In this document: piece by piece, positions 459-15,466 of the stretch
Numbering within the stretch: the first letter of the stretch is position 1
Layout: every line of letters begins with the position of its first letter
DNA from: a virus
DNA: 64,000 nucleotides
Reading direction: 5' to 3' (one strand)
Virus record (IMG/VR): IMGVR_UViG_3300005663_000028
Span: 64,001-128,000 of that record
Position numbers and translations under genes: made by a program
The notes under the pieces: model-generated
Told to the model about the DNA's origin: nothing
Databases searched by the model: none
What the model saw: only the letters and a program-made list of their open reading frames with translations

Positions 459-758
459 ATGTTGAGAGTAACAATTGGTGAAGATGAGTTTCAAGTTTGG
501 TTTTCACATCCAGTTCAAAAACCATTTGAAATTGAAGGGTTAACTGGACGTATAGTTGATGATGATCGTAGATGTACGATAGTACAAATCAGGCAAAACG
601 GAGCTTTTGGAAGTCAAGGGGTCGCTGTTTGTAATCCCAATGACAATTTTCGCAAGGCAACTGGAAGAAAAATAGCACTTGCTGACGCCATGTGGGATTT
701 TAATAAGGACGAACGAATAGCGATATGGAATGAATATCATAAACATTGTAGTCTCTAA
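459..758 (+). CDS. Hypothetical phage protein
   Basis: 99-aa ORF with AAGGAG RBS; G.A.C.P.D.F.K..GRKIAL motif common in phage hypotheticals. Confidence 0.7.
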   Translation: MLRVTIGEDEFQVWFSHPVQKPFEIEGLTGRIVDDDRRCTIVQIRQNGAFGSQGVAVCNPNDNFRKATGRKIALADAMWDFNKDERIAIWNEYHKHCSL

Positions 759-769
759 GGGGAAATAAG

Positions 770-1897
770 GTGGGATACAGATATTGTGTTTTTGGGGCCG
801 GTCGTCAGGGCACTGCCGTCATTTATGACTTGGTGAAATTCTGTGAAGCCGATTGGGTGGTTGTTTATGAACCGAGCGACAGGTCTCGTCGACTGGCACA
901 TGAAAAACTTAACAGCCTACTGGAAGATGACTACGACAAGGTTCTTTGGGTATCAACGCTAGATGATAGACGAACACCAAAAATAGACTGGAAATCGTTC
1001 GATGTCATGATCAGTTGTGCTCCATGGAAGGAAAATCTCGGTTTGACGGAATTTGCAGTTCGGTGGAATACACCATTTTGTGACCTGGGAGGACATCCTG
1101 AAACCGTAGCTAGACAAGAAAATGTTATCACGGACACAGCGATCGTTCCAGATTGTGGGTTGTCTCCTGGTATCTCGAATATTCTGGCAGTTCATCTGGC
1201 AAAGCTCGGGTACGATAACATACAGGTGAGGTGTGGAGGTATTCCCATGGGGAATACTTCTGTTGGTGAATTTAACCAGGGTCTATGTTATCGCTTAACT
1301 TTTGATCCGACGGGACTAATTAGTGAGTATAGTGGTCGTGTACCTATAATAATCAGTGGTGAATTAAAGTATATTGAGTCGTTGTCAACAATAGAGCTAT
1401 ACAAAGATGGAAGATATGAGTGTGCTCCTACCTCGAACAACTCTCCCCAGGTTGTTCAGACTCTTTTGGATTTGGGTGTAAAGTACTATAACTACATGAC
1501 TATTAGACATAAGGGGCACTGGAATTTGGTGAAGGGATGGAAGGCTGCTGGTTTTTTAAGTGGTAATAAGAAAGCAGATGCGTATTTGGTCGAAGTTTTG
1601 GGTGAAAACCCACTTTTGAAGTATGATCCTGAAAAACATGTTGATAAGGTGTTATTGAATATATCTGGTACACGGGGCGAAAATTCGCTTAAACAAACTG
1701 GGGGTTTTGATTTTCTTGTTCTCGCCGATCCAGAAACAAAGTTCTCAGCAATGGAACAAATGACGTCTTGGGGTATAACTATGGTAGCTCATTATATGGC
1801 TACTAGAAATGGTACACCCAATAAATTTGCAACACCAGAACGGTTTGTCTCAGGGGATTGGATTTTAGAAGGATTGAACAAACGATTGCCATCGTAG
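770..1897 (+). CDS. Saccharopine dehydrogenase / lysine 6-dehydrogenase family NAD(P)-dependent oxidoreductase
   Basis: N-terminal Rossmann motif VFGAGRQG, D..ISCAP, YCDLGG-like FCDLGG, DCGLSPGISN, RCGG.P and the Y.T.R..GH C-terminal motif. Confidence 0.85.
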   Translation: MGYRYCVFGAGRQGTAVIYDLVKFCEADWVVVYEPSDRSRRLAHEKLNSLLEDDYDKVLWVSTLDDRRTPKIDWKSFDVMISCAPWKENLGLTEFAVRWNTPFCDLGGHPETVARQENVITDTAIVPDCGLSPGISNILAVHLAKLGYDNIQVRCGGIPMGNTSVGEFNQGLCYRLTFDPTGLISEYSGRVPIIISGELKYIESLSTIELYKDGRYECAPTSNNSPQVVQTLLDLGVKYYNYMTIRHKGHWNLVKGWKAAGFLSGNKKADAYLVEVLGENPLLKYDPEKHVDKVLLNISGTRGENSLKQTGGFDFLVLADPETKFSAMEQMTSWGITMVAHYMATRNGTPNKFATPERFVSGDWILEGLNKRLPS

Positions 1898-1913
1898 AAA
1901 TTAAACAACTTGT

Positions 1914-1985
1914 GCCCGCTAAGCATAGATAGCGATGCGCTGGTTTTGTAAATCAGGGAGGTTGGTGCATGTCCGACAGTGGGCT
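1914..1985 (+). tRNA. tRNA-Thr(UGU)
   Basis: Cloverleaf: acceptor GCCCGCT/AGTGGGC, D stem GCAT/ATGC, anticodon stem CTGGT/ATCAG with loop TT-TGT-AA, T stem GTTGG/CCGAC. No encoded CCA. Confidence 0.85.
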
Positions 1986-2001
1986 TAGTGGAAAAGAGGC
2001 T

Positions 2002-2574
2002 ATGAGAGCCGCAGCTATTCGTGGCAACGAGACACGAAGAGTACGTAATAGAAATAATTATGCAATGAACCTAAAATTTTGTGCTCATTGTGATCGGCAA
2101 TTGGCTTACACCAAACGACACAATCGTTTCTGTAATCACTCGTGTGCCGCTTCTGCGAATAACTTAGGTGTGACACGACACAGTAAGTACATCAAAAGGC
2201 CGTGTGATCTATGTGGAGAAATAACTAGAAACCCAAAATTTTGTTCTACGAGGTGTTGTTGTGACTACATAAAGAAGTTGGCGAAACCGAATATTACAAT
2301 AAATGGGTGTTTTTTGACATCGCTTGCTGCTAAAAGGTATTTATTGAGAATTTATGGCAATACCTGTTCTGTGTGCGGCTTATCAGAGTGGAATAATAAA
2401 CCAATGTCGATATGTATTGATCATATAGATGGGAATTATCAGAACCACAGTATCGCAAATGTTAGGTTGATTTGTCCAAATTGTGACGCGCAAACGGATA
2501 CGTATAAGGGGAGGAATCGAGGCAATGGACGACATGCTCGTATGGAACGATATCACAAGGGGTTGAGTTACTGA
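2002..2574 (+). CDS. HNH endonuclease with N-terminal CxxC zinc-finger repeats (putative homing endonuclease)
   Basis: CSVCG...IDHIDGN..NH...NVRLICPNCDAQT HNH motif. Start moved from 1969 (inside the tRNA) to the ATG at 2002. Confidence 0.85.
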   Translation: MRAAAIRGNETRRVRNRNNYAMNLKFCAHCDRQLAYTKRHNRFCNHSCAASANNLGVTRHSKYIKRPCDLCGEITRNPKFCSTRCCCDYIKKLAKPNITINGCFLTSLAAKRYLLRIYGNTCSVCGLSEWNNKPMSICIDHIDGNYQNHSIANVRLICPNCDAQTDTYKGRNRGNGRHARMERYHKGLSY

Positions 2575-2590
2575 AAGTTGAGGTGAAAAA

Positions 2591-2764
2591 ATGTTTGTTT
2601 TATTGCTGTCTATATTTGGAGTTTGGATGTTTATGTCTTTATTGGCCCTGGCGTCAGACGTTAGAGATGGACTTGGAGACGGAAGATTTATCTGGTTGTT
2701 TGGTTATCCAGGGGATCGGTTATATGAATTATCTAAAAAACTCTTCATTGTTAGAAATAGATAA
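2591..2764 (+). CDS. Small membrane protein (57 aa; not in ORF track)
   Basis: MFVLLLSIFGVWMFMSLLALASDVRDG...; GAGGTG RBS; its TAA overlaps the next ATG (TAATG). Confidence 0.6.
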   Translation: MFVLLLSIFGVWMFMSLLALASDVRDGLGDGRFIWLFGYPGDRLYELSKKLFIVRNR

Positions 2765-3147
2765 TGCTTGTTTTTATTCTAGAAGATGATCCTGTACGCA
2801 TGGAGAAATTCATCAGAGAATTATCGTGTGATGAAATACATCATGTAGAAACAGTAGACGCTGGAAAAGAACTGTTATTAAAGAATAAATACGATCTTCT
2901 TTTACTAGATCATGATTTGGGTGGAGAACAAATGGTAGACTCGTGGAAACAGAATACTGGTTATCAACTTGCCAAGTTTATTCCAAAAACACAAAATAAA
3001 GATACACCATGTATTACACATACCTGTAATCCTGCTGGGGCAGACAATATTTTGAGTGTACTTCCACACGCAATTAAAGTACCATTTCCGTCACTCAATA
3101 TCGCCGCTATTGGTGAATTTGTAGAACAACACAAACAAGGGATGTAA
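2764..3147 (+). CDS. Stand-alone receiver-domain protein, cyclic-phosphate-processing Rec-like
   Basis: FILEDD, YDLLLLDHDLGG, TGY..A and ITHTCNPAGA motifs match this Rec subfamily. Confidence 0.75.
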   Translation: MLVFILEDDPVRMEKFIRELSCDEIHHVETVDAGKELLLKNKYDLLLLDHDLGGEQMVDSWKQNTGYQLAKFIPKTQNKDTPCITHTCNPAGADNILSVLPHAIKVPFPSLNIAAIGEFVEQHKQGM

Positions 3148-3925: not shown

Positions 3926-4467
3926 TGAGTACAAAAAATACCCATAGACAAAAATACCCTCATTTTGGCAAGAAGGGTGATAGTCCACACAAACATTATT
4001 CAAATAGAGCAGAGATAATCAAAAAGAAGGGTGGAGATATGCCAAATGAGGTTTTCGAATCTGATGGGGGTCAAATACAAAAACACGCAGAAAATCCTAG
4101 TTGGGAATTTGACGACAGCGATTTAATAAAGATGTATTATTGGCGAGATCGATGTCGTCTAGCAGAAAAATTGATACAACACGTTTTAACTAGAAAAGAT
4201 GTTGGTAGGGCGTTACATATACACGGCCTTGAAGAAAAACTTAGGAAACTACAAGAGGAAATGACTCATCAAAGAATTGCCGCAGAGGTCCGAAATAAAC
4301 AGCTTAAAGCTGCCAATATGATTGTGTGTTGTACTGGAGGTTGTGAAGGTGGAATTATCGGGTCTTCAGATAAGGTAGAAGAGGAGTTAGTCGTCGAAGT
4401 CGAGCGCACAGCCAAGAGATTGAGGCAATGGTGGGAAAATCGTAAGCACCGATTGTCTCAAGAATAG
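3925..4467 (+). CDS. Hypothetical protein with coiled-coil segment
   Basis: 180-aa ORF coupled to the upstream stop (TAATG). Confidence 0.6.
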   Translation: MSTKNTHRQKYPHFGKKGDSPHKHYSNRAEIIKKKGGDMPNEVFESDGGQIQKHAENPSWEFDDSDLIKMYYWRDRCRLAEKLIQHVLTRKDVGRALHIHGLEEKLRKLQEEMTHQRIAAEVRNKQLKAANMIVCCTGGCEGGIIGSSDKVEEELVVEVERTAKRLRQWWENRKHRLSQE

Positions 4468-4495
4468 CTTGCCTGCCATGTGTAGGTGGAGTAAC

Positions 4496-4530
4496 AGTGT
4501 CGTTTTCGGACGACACTAGATTTTTTTATT
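4496..4530 (+). terminator. Rho-independent terminator
   Basis: AGTGTCGT-TTTCGG-ACGACACT 8-bp stem followed by a long T tract. Confidence 0.8.
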
Positions 4531-4554
4531 TTTTTGGGACAAAATGGTGAGTTA

Positions 4555-4564
4555 GGGGTATAAT
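4555..4564 (+). promoter_or_regulatory. Putative -10 element upstream of the tRNA-like gene
   Basis: GGGGTATAAT just after a terminator, ~40 nt upstream of the tRNA-like gene; no clear -35. Confidence 0.4.
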
Positions 4565-4605
4565 AAGGTATCGAGGTATCGGGGAGTACCACCGATCCCG
4601 ATTAT

Positions 4606-4677
4606 GGTTTTGGTAGCTCAGTTTGGTAGAGCAACGGGTCGCACCTGTGGTCGTTGGTTCAAATCCAACCCAAACCA
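4606..4677 (+). tRNA. Atypical/degenerate tRNA-like gene (shortened anticodon arm; identity unresolved)
   Basis: Canonical D arm (TAGCTCAGTTTGGTAGAGC) and T arm (GTTGG-TTCAAAT-CCAAC). Anticodon arm ACGGG-TCGCA-CCTGT has only a 5-nt loop; acceptor stem has a bulge. Confidence 0.55.
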
Positions 4678-4755
4678 TTTGTTGTCTGCCAGGGGCAGGG
4701 AATCCATAAAGGCTTGGCCACGGAGCCGTATCTGTGGTGATTTGGGGAATAATCA

Positions 4756-4896
4756 ATGAAAAGTTTGTGTACACAATTAAGTGACAAGGATGCTCAGATA
4801 TTTCTGGAGATGTTGCAGGATGATTCTGAACCCAACGAGGCACTTAAAGCCGCTGCGATACGGTACGTATCGCCATTTGGTGGTGATGCGGGCTAG
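4756..4896 (+). CDS. 46-aa orphan protein resembling the C-terminal part of DUF1778 (TacA/AtaR/KacA) antitoxins (not in ORF track)
   Basis: MKSLCTQLSDKDAQIFLEMLQDDSEPNEALKAAAIRY...; LS..D...F...L....EPNEALK.A..RY is the DUF1778 C-terminal pattern; GGGGA RBS; no RHH domain. Confidence 0.65.
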   Translation: MKSLCTQLSDKDAQIFLEMLQDDSEPNEALKAAAIRYVSPFGGDAG

Positions 4897-4970
4897 GGTT
4901 TATTCTTTTAATTAAGATTGGACTTTGGCTCGTGGGAGACTGCGGATCTTTTTTTGTTAGATATAGGACT

Positions 4971-5609
4971 ATGAAAACAACAACAGTTAATATTCGTCGT
5001 AGTGAATATGATGTATATATCGGCCGTGCTGGGCATGGCCACGATGGTATTTTCGGCAATCCATTCAGTGGTATCCGAGACGGTGGACGCGAGAAAGCAA
5101 TTGCGTTATACCGAAAATACTTTTTGGAACGATTAAAAAATGATCAAGAATTTGTTGCACAGGTAGAAAAATTAAAGGGTAAGCGGCTTGGTTGTTTCTG
5201 TAAACCAAAGGCTTGTCATGGGGATGTGATAGTTGAGTATTTGGAGAAACCAATGAAAGTGGTGATATGTGGAGATCGTAATTGGTCGGATGAATCTATT
5301 ATTTGTGAAAGATTACATAAACTTCCTTCCGATACTATCATTATCCAGGGGGAGTGTGACGGTGCAGATACTTTAGCCGGGGATCTTGCTAGGGAAATAG
5401 GACTTGATGTTGTCGGGTTCTATGCCAATTGGACTAGGCACGGTAAGGCTGCTGGGCCAATCAGAAATATTAGGATGTTGAATACGAAACCGTCTTTGGT
5501 AATTGCATTCCATAATGATTTGAGTAAGTCTAAGGGGACTAAGCACATAGTCAATGAAGCAAGGAAACGAGGAATTGAAGTGGAGGTTATTGAAGATAAT
5601 GTTGAATGA
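4971..5609 (+). CDS. DUF4326 + YspA-like SLOG (DUF2493-type) fusion protein
   Basis: N-domain VYIGR...FGNPF...GKRLGCFCKPKACHGDVI; C-domain KVVICGDRNW...GECDGAD.LA...HGKAAGPIRN..ML...VIAF...SKGT. Start placed at ATG 4971. Confidence 0.85.
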   Translation: MKTTTVNIRRSEYDVYIGRAGHGHDGIFGNPFSGIRDGGREKAIALYRKYFLERLKNDQEFVAQVEKLKGKRLGCFCKPKACHGDVIVEYLEKPMKVVICGDRNWSDESIICERLHKLPSDTIIIQGECDGADTLAGDLAREIGLDVVGFYANWTRHGKAAGPIRNIRMLNTKPSLVIAFHNDLSKSKGTKHIVNEARKRGIEVEVIEDNVE

Positions 5610-5893: not shown

Positions 5894-6181
5894 TTGAATA
5901 AGATGTTGGAATGTTGTCTACCCAGTGATCAGATGGTTGAGGTATTGTTCAAGGGCGAAAAAGAAAAAGCTAAATTAGCTATTGCCGCAGCTTTTACAGA
6001 GACCGGAACTCACCTGATATTGATTCTCGCAGACGGTAAACAGCGTACTGTACCAATATCTATTTTTACGGACAATCCGGTTGCAGTGCCAAACTTTAAC
6101 ACTTTAGAGCTTTGTGACTATGGACGTACTGTTAAATTTGGCACATATGAAGCGGCAGTAGATTTTGCTTTGAAATACTGA
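5894..6181 (+). CDS. Hypothetical protein, weakly DUF2442-like
   Basis: LILILADGKQRTVPISIF...FNTLELCDYGRTVKFG pattern; the TGA stop lies inside the 5' end of tRNA-Pro. Confidence 0.55.
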   Translation: MNKMLECCLPSDQMVEVLFKGEKEKAKLAIAAAFTETGTHLILILADGKQRTVPISIFTDNPVAVPNFNTLELCDYGRTVKFGTYEAAVDFALKY

Positions 6182-7322: not shown

Positions 7323-7526
7323 ATGTTATCAACAGAAAGAGGTGTTGCACTACAACATTTGTGTGAGCATCGCATTAACGACGCGGATGAATATGGTGCC
7401 GCATTAGAAATGATTGACTTTATAGCGACAGAAGAAAAACTCACCGACGACCAGAAACTGTTTACAGAAACTCTAATATCTATTGTTGATGAGTATGAGG
7501 AAAAACATTATCCTTATGGAAATTAA
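7323..7526 (+). CDS. 67-aa orphan protein resembling the N-terminal domain of HigA antitoxins (no HTH)
   Basis: RINDADEYGAALEMID...FTETLISIVDEYEEKHYP matches the I...EEY..AL......L..L..LVE.YEE.HYP HigA N-terminal pattern; the ORF stops where the HTH would begin. Confidence 0.7.
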   Translation: MLSTERGVALQHLCEHRINDADEYGAALEMIDFIATEEKLTDDQKLFTETLISIVDEYEEKHYPYGN

Positions 7527-7586: not shown

Positions 7587-7769
7587 ATGCACAAAAAAGA
7601 AACTGGAATTCCGTGTTTTGAGTGTGGCAAGCGATCTGGGATAGATTGTCCTGGACGTAGACCAGACGAGGCTACTCGCTGTACTGTGTGTATGGAAGAG
7701 TTTATGGGGCGAATACGTAGAATTTCAGAAAAATATAAAGACTCACTGAAAAGACTAGCTGATTCTTAG
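7587..7769 (+). CDS. Small zinc-finger protein
   Basis: CFECG...C...CTVC, 60 aa. Confidence 0.55.
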   Translation: MHKKETGIPCFECGKRSGIDCPGRRPDEATRCTVCMEEFMGRIRRISEKYKDSLKRLADS

Positions 7770-11149: not shown

Positions 11150-14100
11150 ATGGCACAGCCCTTTATTCTAGATGTTATTTTACAAATTCAGAAACTGGAT
11201 GGTCTTGATGTAGTCAAGCAGCAACTGGCTGGTATACAAGTGGGTGGTATTGGTCAAACTGGTAAATTGGCCAAAGGTCTAAAGAACGTGGGTATCCAGG
11301 CGAGTACTGCTGCAATACATGTAGCTAGGGGTGCTAATGTCACTATTAAAATGGGTAATGCCGCCAAGAAAACAGGTAGTCAACTTAAGGGTGCTGGTAA
11401 GGCTGCTAAAGGTTTCGGTGACCAAATACTTTTGGCGGGCAAGAGATACGGTGCATTTCTTGGTGCCACAGTTGTTGCGTTTAAGGCTTTTCAACTAATC
11501 GGTTCTGGCACTAGGGCTGTAATTGAGTTTGATCAGGCCATAGTTTCATTATCTCAAATCCTTGACAAACCAATTGATCAACTACAAGAGTTGTCTAAGC
11601 AGTTTCTAGATTTGTCGGTTACTACTGGTACGAGTGCAAAAGAAATTGCTGAAGCTGCTAAGCTGCTGGCTCAAGCTGGTTTTAGAGGTAGTGAGCTAAC
11701 AGAGGCAATCAGTCAATTAGCCAAGGTACCTCTTACTCCTATTTTTGAGAATATGGATCAAGCAGTCGACGGCGCTATTGCTGCGTTGAGACAGTTCTCT
11801 GATGAGGGCTTAACGGTAGAGAGTGTCTTTGATAAGATAATCAACGTTTCTAACAAATATGCGGCATCTTTTCCTGACATCATCGAAGGTCTCAAGAGAG
11901 GTGGTTCTGCTTTCCAGGCTATTGGCGGAACACTAGACGAGTTCATAGCAGCCTTTACAACTATCAGGTCCGTTACCAGAGAAAGTGCCTCATCTGTTGG
12001 TACATCTCTGAAAACCCTCTCTTCTCGTCTTGCTGATCCTAAGATCATCAAATTCTTGGAGACCAAAAATATCAGGGTTCTTGAAGAAGGTCAATTCGTT
12101 GGTCCACTTGAAGCGATACGTCGTATCGGTGATGGTCTTGAAAGACAAACAACTATACAAGACAAGATTAACATTGCAACCAAGCTCGGTGGTCGACGAC
12201 AAATCAGTCGTTTCTTAGCGGTGGCACAGAATGCAGAGAAAACAGATAGGATTCTGGAAGATGCCAAAAATTCTTCTGGTGCATTTAGCAAAGTGGCGGA
12301 TCAAGGATTACAGGCTATAGGTAAGCAAATTGACATACTTGTAGCAAAAGCACAAAAATTAGCAATAGACCTCGGTGCAGATTTATTCATTCCATTTATT
12401 GAAGGATTAACAGGTGCCGCAGAAGGTGCAATTGCACTACTTGGTGCACTTAAACCGATACTCCCACTTATTTCTAAAATAGGCGCTGTCTTGGCTGGCG
12501 GGGCCATAATTAAGGGTCTAGGGTCATTCATTGGGCCAAGACTTGGCCAACTTGCTGGTCCTGCTGCTTTTGCTGCCGCAGGTGGGGGTCGAAAAGGTAT
12601 TTCGGCTGGTATTGGCGCTAGTCCTTTTGCACAAGCTGGTCTTTTGATCGCTGCTTCGGAAACTGCTGCTGCTTTGGTTCGTACTGCTGATGGTGCTGAT
12701 TCTTTTACTGCGAGCTTGATTTCATCCATTGGTGCCATCACAGCCGCTATAGCATTATTCAGAGGTCAAACCATAGCACAGTTTGCTACTGGTGGTGGTC
12801 TATTTAAGAACTTAGGCAAATTAGGAAAACTTGGTGCTCTTGCTGGAACAGCAGCTACTATTGGTACCATTGCCTTACCACTTATAATAGGAAAAGCACA
12901 AGATAGTGCTCAAGAATTAACAGACAGAATAATTGAAAGTGCGAGAAAAGCTATATCAAATATTTCTCTAGACGCTGAGGGTCCGAATCAGGTTTCTGAT
13001 ATTCTTGGTAACCTATACCAAGAAGTAGGAAAGGGTATACAAGAATTCATAAAAAGTGCCGATCCACTACAAGACCCAAGTTTGTCCAAATCACTTGCTG
13101 GAATAGGAAGGGCTCTTAGCGGTTTATTCGAAGGCGACTTTGAGGCAGTATTTGGGCCAGAAGGTAGTGCGAGTAGTCGTGGTGGATTATCCAGTAAACA
13201 GATTCAAAAGAAAATAGAAGAACTTATTGGTAGTCGTCCAAAATTAGTGGAAGGACTAATTGACAGTGTTGCTCAAACCCTTATTGACACAGGGAAAACA
13301 AAAAGAGTACGAGGTAATGCTAGGCAAAGTTTGATTACACAAACCATTGCGAGTGGCCGAACTCCTGAAGCTGCTAGTGTATTAGTAGATGCGATTATTA
13401 AAGCAGCGGGAGGTTTAGATAAGTTCAATGATGGAGTTCGTAATAATATCAACACTATTCAAACAGAAAATATTGCGAGAGAAAAAACAGTTGCTTTAAT
13501 GAGAAATTTTATTCCGACTAAAGTGGTTGGTCAACTACTTAGCTTTTCTAAAGCTGTTGATAAAACAACCAGAATAATCAACACATCTGCTAAACTGTTC
13601 CAATCACAAATAGCAGAAATTGCAGGAGGCATTAGGGCTCCTAAGCTTGATTTTGATTTTGGATCACAGCAGGTAGAAAATTTGATTAAAGGTGGCGGTC
13701 TGAAAGACCTGTTCGCATTCACTCCAGATATTCCAAGTTTTGTTGGTGCCTTCGATGATATTGATTCTTTATTAAGCCGTTTTATAACAAGCGTTAGTGA
13801 CTTGCCAACTGGACTCGATTTTAATGTTGAAGACATTGTGGATCAATTTTTTAAGTTAGAAAACATACCCGCTGTTTTGAAAGATAAGTTTGCCGATTTC
13901 TTTGATACTACGGCACAGGATATACGTAATGTTGCTGAGGGAAAATTCATTAGCGCAGACGAAATTAAGCAAAGATTTCAGAAAGAATTTGAAAATCTTG
14001 GTGTAGGTACTACTGATGCTGTTGTTGAATCTGTTGTTCAATTCATGAATAGTACATTTACGCAAATTGAGGATGAATTAAATAGGCTGGCAACAGTCCG

Positions 14101-15466
14101 TCAGTTTGAGCTAGACATAGCAGTGAGGCCAGGAACTCAGGCTAGATTCTTAGAGCAACAGCTTCAACGTGTAGGAGTTTCTACTGGAGGTAGGGGAGGA
14201 CCAGTTAGAGAAGCAAGGGGTAGTATTGCTGAATTAGACTTGATAAGACGAGAAAGGGAGACTAGAGGTGCCGTTGGGGTTCCAGGTTTGCTTCCGACCC
14301 CAGAAGAAGGATTTTTTCAAGGTCCGGGGCAAAGACTTGCGGACATTGTTGGGGATGAGAGAATTAGGGCTCAACTTAGAGATCAATTCAAAGAACTGAT
14401 TACAGAATCTTCTGTTCTCAAAAGAGAATTATCAAACCTTAAACCAGGGTCGATAGATTTTATAAAAGCGTCTGAAGATTTGAGAGAACTGTCTCGTTCT
14501 ACGATCGAATTGCAAACAGCTATGGAGGCTGCTAGCCAGGCAACGCAACAATCATTGGAGATAGAAAAAAGAACACTGACACTACAACAAGGGTTGGAGA
14601 CTGCTCAAGCACAGGCTCGCGGGGCAGAATTGGTGAGACAGGGTCGCATTACACCGTTACAGGCAGATAGAAGAGCTTTCGATCTAACTCAGAGACAAGC
14701 TGAGGAACAGCGGGCTTTGCAAGATAAGTTTGATGGTATTATTGAGAAAGATAATGCATTGCGTGCAGACTTAGCCAAAACCATCAGTATCAATACCAAA
14801 AGTCAAGCAGAAATTGTTGGTGAATTTAGTATGTCTACAAATATTTTCTCCGAAGCTACACGAATTCAATTTTCTGCTGCTGAACTTATGGCGAAAAACA
14901 TCAGTGACTTTGGTCAACGCATTACAAGTACAGCCGATCTTACCGCTGGGTCTCCACCTACAACGTTCGGTGGGTTCGGTCCTGCTGCTGCGTCAAGACC
15001 TGTTGAAGAAATATCACAACAATCGACTAGTAACACGAATGAGAAAATACAAGAAAATACAAATGCACAGCGACAATCATTGGAAGTTCTTAAAGCTATT
15101 TTCAGTAGACAACAAGAGCTTCTTTCAAGAGACTTACCTCCGGAGGATGTTCGGGCCGCTGGAAGAAAAGTGGGCGATATTGAATTCTCTCAGGAAGCTA
15201 TAGAAAATCTTGCGGAAAAAATTGAAAATCTTGAAACCGCGATCAGAGAACCAAGTGAAATCAAACTAGTATCCGATCAGCGTGTAGAAATAGACCTCTC
15301 TACTCTTCCATCGGATGTAGTAAATGAGGTACGACCAATATTCGAAGAAGCTGCCCTGAAAACTGCGTCTATAGTAACCAGAAAAGCTTTGGAAAGCCTA
15401 GCCGCTAACAGCCAGGACTCCGAGATATCAATAGCAGCGACCAATACCGCACAGGAGTTAGTTTAA
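11150..15466 (+). CDS. Tail tape measure protein (TP901-like core)
   Basis: 1438 aa, Ala/Gly/Leu-rich and helical; core EFDQAIVSL...TSAKEIAEAAKLLAQAG...DKI..VSNKYA.S...I..GL.R.GS...IAAFT..RSVTRESAS.VGTSLKT..SRL. Confidence 0.92.
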   Translation: MAQPFILDVILQIQKLDGLDVVKQQLAGIQVGGIGQTGKLAKGLKNVGIQASTAAIHVARGANVTIKMGNAAKKTGSQLKGAGKAAKGFGDQILLAGKRYGAFLGATVVAFKAFQLIGSGTRAVIEFDQAIVSLSQILDKPIDQLQELSKQFLDLSVTTGTSAKEIAEAAKLLAQAGFRGSELTEAISQLAKVPLTPIFENMDQAVDGAIAALRQFSDEGLTVESVFDKIINVSNKYAASFPDIIEGLKRGGSAFQAIGGTLDEFIAAFTTIRSVTRESASSVGTSLKTLSSRLADPKIIKFLETKNIRVLEEGQFVGPLEAIRRIGDGLERQTTIQDKINIATKLGGRRQISRFLAVAQNAEKTDRILEDAKNSSGAFSKVADQGLQAIGKQIDILVAKAQKLAIDLGADLFIPFIEGLTGAAEGAIALLGALKPILPLISKIGAVLAGGAIIKGLGSFIGPRLGQLAGPAAFAAAGGGRKGISAGIGASPFAQAGLLIAASETAAALVRTADGADSFTASLISSIGAITAAIALFRGQTIAQFATGGGLFKNLGKLGKLGALAGTAATIGTIALPLIIGKAQDSAQELTDRIIESARKAISNISLDAEGPNQVSDILGNLYQEVGKGIQEFIKSADPLQDPSLSKSLAGIGRALSGLFEGDFEAVFGPEGSASSRGGLSSKQIQKKIEELIGSRPKLVEGLIDSVAQTLIDTGKTKRVRGNARQSLITQTIASGRTPEAASVLVDAIIKAAGGLDKFNDGVRNNINTIQTENIAREKTVALMRNFIPTKVVGQLLSFSKAVDKTTRIINTSAKLFQSQIAEIAGGIRAPKLDFDFGSQQVENLIKGGGLKDLFAFTPDIPSFVGAFDDIDSLLSRFITSVSDLPTGLDFNVEDIVDQFFKLENIPAVLKDKFADFFDTTAQDIRNVAEGKFISADEIKQRFQKEFENLGVGTTDAVVESVVQFMNSTFTQIEDELNRLATVRQFELDIAVRPGTQARFLEQQLQRVGVSTGGRGGPVREARGSIAELDLIRRERETRGAVGVPGLLPTPEEGFFQGPGQRLADIVGDERIRAQLRDQFKELITESSVLKRELSNLKPGSIDFIKASEDLRELSRSTIELQTAMEAASQATQQSLEIEKRTLTLQQGLETAQAQARGAELVRQGRITPLQADRRAFDLTQRQAEEQRALQDKFDGIIEKDNALRADLAKTISINTKSQAEIVGEFSMSTNIFSEATRIQFSAAELMAKNISDFGQRITSTADLTAGSPPTTFGGFGPAAASRPVEEISQQSTSNTNEKIQENTNAQRQSLEVLKAIFSRQQELLSRDLPPEDVRAAGRKVGDIEFSQEAIENLAEKIENLETAIREPSEIKLVSDQRVEIDLSTLPSDVVNEVRPIFEEAALKTASIVTRKALESLAANSQDSEISIAATNTAQELV

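Follow-up and report, generated by a model that had tools for sequence, protein, structure and literature searches.

A phage gene for a 46-residue homologue of the C-terminal module of DUF1778/TacA antitoxins

The locus and its transcription unit

The DNA analysed here (the window, 64,000 nucleotides) corresponds to the bases 64001–128000 of a 179,553-bp IMG/VR virus record, for which a completeness of 100% is given by CheckV. Contigs identical to the phage record come from marine-sediment metagenomes (PRJNA259156). A tape-measure gene is located in the window, confirming that the virus is a tailed phage. In a DNA-level comparison, no deposited phage resembles the region. As an unusual phage cargo, a 375-aa protein encoded at 770–1897 of the window matches the saccharopine dehydrogenase C-terminal domain with 49.7 bits.

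The gene of interest encodes a peptide of 46 residues, and the features around it are listed in Table 1. An in-frame TAA is present two codons 5' of the ATG. Thus, the N-terminus is fixed, and an upstream extension of the ORF is impossible. The initial annotation had proposed a ribosome-binding site, and a Shine-Dalgarno-like sequence is indeed located ahead of the ATG. The homologue in the contig L002 of a related phage has GGAGGA before its own ATG. The other two forward frames across the ORF contain stops, and no toxin-sized ORF overlapping or abutting it was found. The gene had been described as missed by the ORF track; the exact 46-aa protein is already present in public gene calls. A perfect 19-nt palindrome (8-bp arms and a 3-nt centre) is located at 4855–4873, with no second copy in the genome. 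Its position is within the 3' part of the ORF, in a stretch (codons 32–43) that is identical in DNA to L002.

Table 1. Features of the 46-aa gene and its surroundings (window numbering unless stated otherwise)
Feature	Position	Strand	Basis or details
cREC_REC	2764..3147		
Left border of the unit: intrinsic terminator at the end of the 180-aa gene upstream	4496..4527	+	9-bp stem, then T run
Sigma-70-like promoter	4536..4564	+	GGGACA, 17 nt, TATAAT; 10/12 consensus positions
tRNA-Ala(CGC) ahead of the ORF	4607..4677	+	ARAGORN; Rfam tRNA, 46.2 bits
Shine-Dalgarno-like GGGGA	4744..4748	+	7 nt ahead of the ATG; from sequence
46-aa gene, stand-alone C-terminal module (toxin-binding by homology) of DUF1778/TacA antitoxin	4756..4896	+	Pfam, hhalign, homologues, dN/dS
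Predicted helix 1, residues 10–21, equivalent to KacA helix alpha-C	4783..4818	+	AlphaFold2 model
Linker D-D-S-E-P, residues 22–26, corresponding to the linker PPAP / NPPEP in the canonical antitoxins	4819..4833	+	Alignment; AlphaFold2 break between helices
Predicted helix 2, residues 27–38, equivalent to KacA helix alpha-D	4834..4869	+	AlphaFold2; N27, L30, A33 and Y37 family-conserved
Gly-rich acidic tail S-P-F-G-G-D-A-G	4870..4893	+	Alignments; typical of phage mini-forms
Right border of the unit: long hairpin across the stop codon, followed by a terminator-like stem with a T run	4890..4955	+	Folding
DUF4326 + YAcAr (SLOG) fusion protein, downstream neighbour	4932..5609	+	Pfam DUF4326, 81.8 bits; YAcAr, 52.8 bits
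Tape-measure gene	11150..15466		
RNA ligase, about 5 kb upstream of the ORF	genome 63269–63763		

The 46-aa ORF probably shares a transcript with the tRNA-Ala gene. The left terminator is conserved almost base for base in L002, and the promoter region is also conserved there. The promoter is the only promoter-like site in the segment 4400–5100. Shuffled sequences yield 1.2 such sites on average, and therefore the promoter by itself counts for little. An Rfam search of the same segment detected nothing besides the tRNA. At the right border, the segment 4890–4965 folds at -23.1 kcal/mol (z = -4.07), and a terminator-like site is located at 4930–4945, followed by T7. The terminator of L002 at the same place is clearer.

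The terminator, the promoter and the leader are common to 4440–4760 of the window and 150–720 of L002, and the cargo differs. In L002, a 155-aa DUF1353 gene is found instead of tRNA-Ala, and no tRNA is present there. This exchange of cargo between two related phages within one cassette suggests that the place in front of the small ORF is a swap-in site. As the tRNA gene is replaced and the small ORF stays, pairing with the tRNA is not required.

Homology and conservation of the peptide

The sole Pfam family detected for the 46-aa peptide is PF08681 (TacA1/DUF1778), with an E-value of 1.1e-4 and 22.5 bits against a curated cut-off of 21. The match places the residues 7–37 of the peptide on the profile positions 48–78 of 80 only. 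About 900 small ORFs are present in the 64-kb window, and this E-value for one hand-picked ORF is borderline alone. The identity becomes firm by the same-family matches of the homologues, by hhalign and by profile matches to solved structures. Using hhalign, a profile of five phage peptides was matched to seven canonical antitoxins with 98.4% probability and an E-value of 4.6e-15. The residues 1–39 of the peptide are aligned on the residues 54–92 of the 97-aa antitoxins, that is, on all of the part after the ribbon-helix-helix (RHH) domain. The initial annotation had recognized a DUF1778 C-terminal pattern and had placed the ORF start at the end of the RHH domain. Both proposals are borne out by these searches, as residue 1 of the peptide corresponds to antitoxin residue 54. 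The profile comparisons confirm the 46-aa peptide as a homologue of the post-RHH, C-terminal part of a DUF1778 antitoxin; the product has no N-terminal RHH DNA-binding domain.

According to the alignment, the phage peptide keeps the invariant or near-invariant module residues L8, S9, D12, I15, F16, L20, P26, N27, L30, A33 and Y37, and the module pattern L-S-x-x-D-x-x-I-F ... P-N-x-x-L ... Y is present. Among the solved structures, the best profile matches are chain C of 7ak9 and chain C of 7zg5, and 1y9b and KacA are also matched. Chain C of 7ak9 consists of 36 residues and covers just the toxin-binding module, and chain C of 7zg5 is deposited as a DUF1778 protein. We take 7AK9 to be the complex of TacT with a TacA peptide. 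At the position of the Gly-rich acidic tail of the phage mini-forms, the canonical antitoxins have a basic tail.

In the KacA–KacT complex, the region of beta-B, alpha-C and alpha-D wraps the toxin and provides the high-affinity contact (PMC6698736). The KacA helix alpha-C (residues 57–70) contacts KacT, and the PPAP linker is formed by the residues 71–74 (PMC6698736). In KacAT, the dimeric RHH scaffold and a second conformation of the antitoxin also contribute to the neutralisation (PMC6698736). The AlphaFold2 model of the 46-aa peptide has a mean pLDDT of 67.6, and the residues 44–46 are below 50. The modest value is expected of a segment that folds upon binding. In a Foldseek search of the model against the PDB no match was found, as is also expected for a short peptide of this kind.

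Small homologues were gathered with HMMER, searching exhaustively, and with a word index. Four are located in syntenic phage contigs, with 59–82% identity. These have 46 residues (P0002, 82% identity to the peptide), 47 residues (P0003, 71%), 75 residues (P0004, 63%) and 76 residues (P0007, 62%), and in the two longer forms an internal Met corresponds to the start of the peptide. Two further homologues have 60 residues (P0006, 61%) and 72 residues (P0008, 50%). For every scanned homologue, TacA1 is the only Pfam family within the E-value limit, and the matched profile positions are identical. The word-indexed search for longer homologues gave none. A 5070-aa protein with 12 matched stretches (P0005) was rejected, as it contains D-S-D-P-D-x-N-D-T-L repeats and the match is compositional. 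A tblastn search of 50,697 phage records with the 46-aa peptide and a 118-aa module protein of the viral contig L006 gave nothing credible. With a canonical antitoxin as the query, only full-length copies were detected, all in E. coli phage records.

The homologue of L002 is the only one for which DNA could be compared. The two ORFs differ at 21 of 141 nt (15%) with no indel; eight codons are changed synonymously and nine conservatively, and dN/dS is 0.24. Among random mutation sets, 1.6% have so few amino-acid changes, and 0.1% (1/1000) have so high a BLOSUM score. These results support that the ORF is a real gene, kept under purifying selection.

Cellular relatives, neighbourhood and spread of the module

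Species genomes and metagenomes were scanned with sequence patterns for cellular relatives. The nearest are ordinary DUF1778 antitoxins of 95–113 residues, and those compared with Pfam reach 67.7–86.4 bits over the full profile. Their sources are Acidobacteria, Pyrinomonadales, Pirellulaceae, Gemmataceae and Oscillatoria. The best relatives show 67–70% identity to the peptide over 30 residues, and the unusual linker-helix string D-D-S-E-P-N-E-A-L-K is common to them and the peptide. In five genome loci, the antitoxin stop overlaps by 4 nt the start of a GNAT gene encoding 163–178 residues. In a Gemmataceae antitoxin (L013, locus 1330–2107), TacA1 is matched in the C-terminal module only, and a GNAT-like gene follows directly. 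We take its N-terminal 51 residues, judged by eye, to be AbrB-like. The combination of a non-TacA N-terminus with the module beside a GNAT gene points to module autonomy.

No second PF08681 match was detected in the phage genome, which is rated 100% complete, and thus the phage is without the RHH half. A search of the same genome with PF00583, PF13508, PF13673 and a profile of the partner toxins gave no GNAT protein, and no GNAT gene was found in the related phage contigs. No cognate GNAT toxin gene adjoins the ORF; the downstream gene encodes the DUF4326-SLOG protein, and a comparison of this protein with GNAT toxins showed no similarity. The 46-aa gene is virus-encoded, homologous to a bacterial antitoxin, and without a toxin partner.

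In the contigs of P0002, P0003, P0004 and P0007, a DUF4326 and/or YAcAr gene follows closely after the small ORF, and in the P0007 contig cREC and RNA ligase genes are present farther upstream. A DUF4326-SLOG protein is predicted to be a nucleotide- or ADP-ribose-processing counter-defence enzyme (PMC9503650). A stretch of about 6 kb contains the genes of cREC_REC, the DUF4326 and YAcAr fusion and the RNA ligase, and four tRNA genes as well. By its predicted gene functions, the region looks like an RNA-repair/counter-defence island of the type described in PMC9503650. The ORF had been described as lying inside a tRNA cluster. This description is loose: four of the eight tRNA genes of the phage are located within 3.4 kb here. 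The link to the tRNA is not conserved. No tRNA was found in the other module-bearing loci checked. The link between the ORF and the tRNA is circumstantial and at best thematic, in that both relate to translation under attack. Three other small ORFs, at 5894–6181 (DUF2442-like), 7323–7526 (HigA-like) and 7587–7769 (Doc-partner-like), gave no Pfam match even at E-values of up to 1–10. As antitoxin fragments they are unsupported, and only the TacA-like ORF has support.

By Pfam, the module was also detected within unrelated proteins, encoded on viral contigs or on large metagenome contigs. The 118-aa protein of L006 (TacA1, 28.9 bits) is encoded beside a DUF4406 gene and a YAcAr-like gene. A 247-aa protein that ends in the module (L024, locus 688–3132; 15.5 bits) is encoded two genes after an RNA ligase (PF09414 + PHA02142), and this ligase family is also found upstream of the small ORF of our phage (Table 1) and in the P0007 contig. 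In proteins of 443–477 residues (L007, 3116–4492; L008; L009; L021), the module is located mid-protein (19.4 bits), together with N-terminal transmembrane segments and a coiled coil. D-x-D-G-D-G calcium-binding-like repeats follow the module, and a UvdE endonuclease gene adjoins in the viral contigs L007–L009. Proteins of about 580–620 residues where complete (L026, 2488–4344; L020; L022; L028; L030; L033; L036) contain the module at the residues 169–201 (24.4 bits), followed by a coiled coil. They come from lake-metagenome contigs of up to 215 kb and have no PHROG matches, and nearby genes encode an ABC-type ATPase/permease, a protein with a weak match to ABC-3C CTD4 and a DUF2201 metallopeptidase. 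In the ESM Atlas, the nearest neighbours are clusters of 37–47-aa TacA1-like proteins with 71–156 members (score 0.85), which serve as a lead only.

Candidate functions and comparison with known systems

The best reading, which we hold with somewhat better than even confidence, is that the peptide is an orphan minimal antitoxin and would act as a decoy against a host GNAT toxin. During infection, the small unit between promoter and terminator would be expressed and yield the peptide. It would fold onto a host TacT/AtaT/KacT-like acetyltransferase, which would be freed as infection depletes the labile host antitoxin, and it would cover the acetyl-CoA and dimer surface of the toxin. Aminoacyl-tRNAs would thereby stay unacetylated, and translation would continue for the phage. 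The decoy function is suggested by a homology that is specific to the binding module, by the genuine GNAT partners of the nearest relatives, by the module autonomy, and by the setting among predicted RNA-repair and counter-defence genes. In this proposal we infer the toxin binding (from homology only), the target, the timing of expression and the benefit to the phage.

Several features speak against a decoy. As KacAT uses a dimeric RHH scaffold, a monomeric fragment may bind more weakly. Pairing between antitoxin and toxin in the DUF1778/GNAT family is usually specific, so that one peptide would cover few toxins. The Gly-rich acidic tail is conserved in the phage forms only, and this hints at some functional difference. 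In a 137-kb cellular contig (L027, 2962–3875), a 51-aa ORF with a C-terminal-only TacA1 match (27.6 bits) overlaps by 4 nt a gene for a 253-aa non-GNAT protein. The 253-aa protein has no Pfam family and belongs to phrog_20483 (unknown function). A Schlafen/AlbA_2 gene follows, and the contig also contains a ZIP transporter and an IS200-like transposase. This pair may be toxin–antitoxin-like with a non-GNAT partner, and the module may thus have other partners.

In an alternative that we consider unlikely, the module is re-used and binds a partner other than a toxin of a toxin–antitoxin (TA) system, for which it would be a small subunit with a regulatory or adaptor role. Candidate partners would be the adjacent DUF4326-SLOG enzyme, a different phage protein, or a GNAT acetyltransferase of the host that does not belong to a TA system. 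The small ORF is directly upstream of DUF4326 and/or YAcAr in all five contigs of the phage lineage, and the unrelated L006 repeats the neighbourhood with a YAcAr-like gene. The five contigs are syntenic and represent one lineage, however, and the adjacency counts roughly once. Moreover, a terminator separates the ORF from the DUF4326/YAcAr gene, clearly in L002 and more weakly in the window, and the enzyme does not resemble GNAT toxins. The grafting of the module into unrelated large proteins, the mini-form of L027 and the conserved phage-specific tail are likewise consistent with re-use. Against them stand the toxin-facing invariant residues, which are all retained, and the nearest relatives, which at about 70% identity have bona fide GNAT partners.

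It is improbable that the peptide serves as antitoxin to a toxin from elsewhere in the phage genome, either in a TA or addiction module that is split across the genome or with a toxin that has diverged beyond recognition. P1-like plasmid-prophages do contain full-length DUF1778 genes, and many ORFs of large phage genomes are unannotated. The profile searches of the phage genome for GNAT proteins were negative, though; no ORF of toxin size overlaps or abuts the gene, and the related contigs are also without a GNAT gene. Still less credence is given to a functionless ORF, which would have arisen by chance or by decay of an antitoxin gene captured from a host. Its very short length would fit this reading, as would the Pfam E-value of 1e-4, which is modest for a single sequence picked by hand. 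These points are outweighed by the hhalign result and by the length, start and frame, which are conserved in diverged relatives. The low dN/dS, the conservative substitutions (P = 0.001), the ribosome-binding site, promoter and terminators, and the retention of the ORF while the upstream cargo was swapped also argue against a functionless sequence.

The role of the GNAT/DUF1778 modules (TacAT, AtaRT and KacAT) is unsettled; most discussion of them concerns persistence and plasmid maintenance. Our search of the literature turned up no demonstration of an anti-phage defence by these modules, which also speaks against the decoy reading. The PADLOC models, which do not include these modules, matched neither the peptide nor the canonical antitoxin nor the toxins. 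A phage gene that keeps only the toxin-binding part under purifying selection is indirect natural evidence that GNAT toxins threaten phages. In a wider form of the proposal, to which we give a little less than an even chance, the DUF1778 tail would be a portable 'toxin trap' in many unrelated phages, either bare (46–54 residues) or grafted. GNAT/DUF1778 modules would then be a widespread anti-phage barrier acting on charged tRNA, and phages would bundle the trap with tRNA and RNA-repair genes. If this is true, phages assemble a translation-protection island of the trap, tRNA genes and RNA-repair enzymes. The spread of the module into other phage proteins suggests a general strategy and not a single case. 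The concept of an orphan phage antitoxin is already known, and the value of the finding is the implied anti-phage role of GNAT toxins, together with the evidence of module portability. The 46-residue peptide is also a ready reagent, as a putative natural inhibitor for GNAT toxins.

The peptide resembles the DUF1778 antitoxins TacA, AtaR and KacA (PF08681, GNAT-RHH type II) in the homologous module of strand, helix, linker and helix. Unlike these antitoxins, it is encoded by a phage, lacks the RHH domain for DNA binding and dimerisation, and has no toxin gene either adjacent or distant; its tail is Gly-rich and acidic instead of basic. T4 Dmd and pseudo-ToxI are phage inhibitors of RnlA/LsoA and ToxN, and both are small products that stand in for a labile antitoxin of the infected host. 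In contrast to the 46-aa peptide, which is plainly homologous to a part of the protein antitoxin, Dmd has no sequence relationship to the host antitoxin, and pseudo-ToxI is not a protein but an RNA.

The ORF106 of the lytic cyanophage S-CREM1 is annotated as TacA and has no TacT, and its authors propose that it counters a host TA system (PMC9964418). The assignment is an annotation only, and TacAT is not reported in the host (PMC9964418). Its similarity to the 46-aa peptide is too low for tblastn. Orphan antitoxin-like counter-defence proteins of phages are experimentally established against DarTG (PMC11825919, PMC11481870). As in the case of the DarG-like AdfA/AdfB, the gene described here is a phage gene related to a host antitoxin, the toxin is absent, and the role, established for AdfA/AdfB and proposed for the peptide, is the neutralisation of a TA defence of the host. 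AdfA/AdfB are tested enzymes that reverse the DNA modification by the toxin, whereas the 46-aa peptide would be a stoichiometric binder that consists of the binding module alone.
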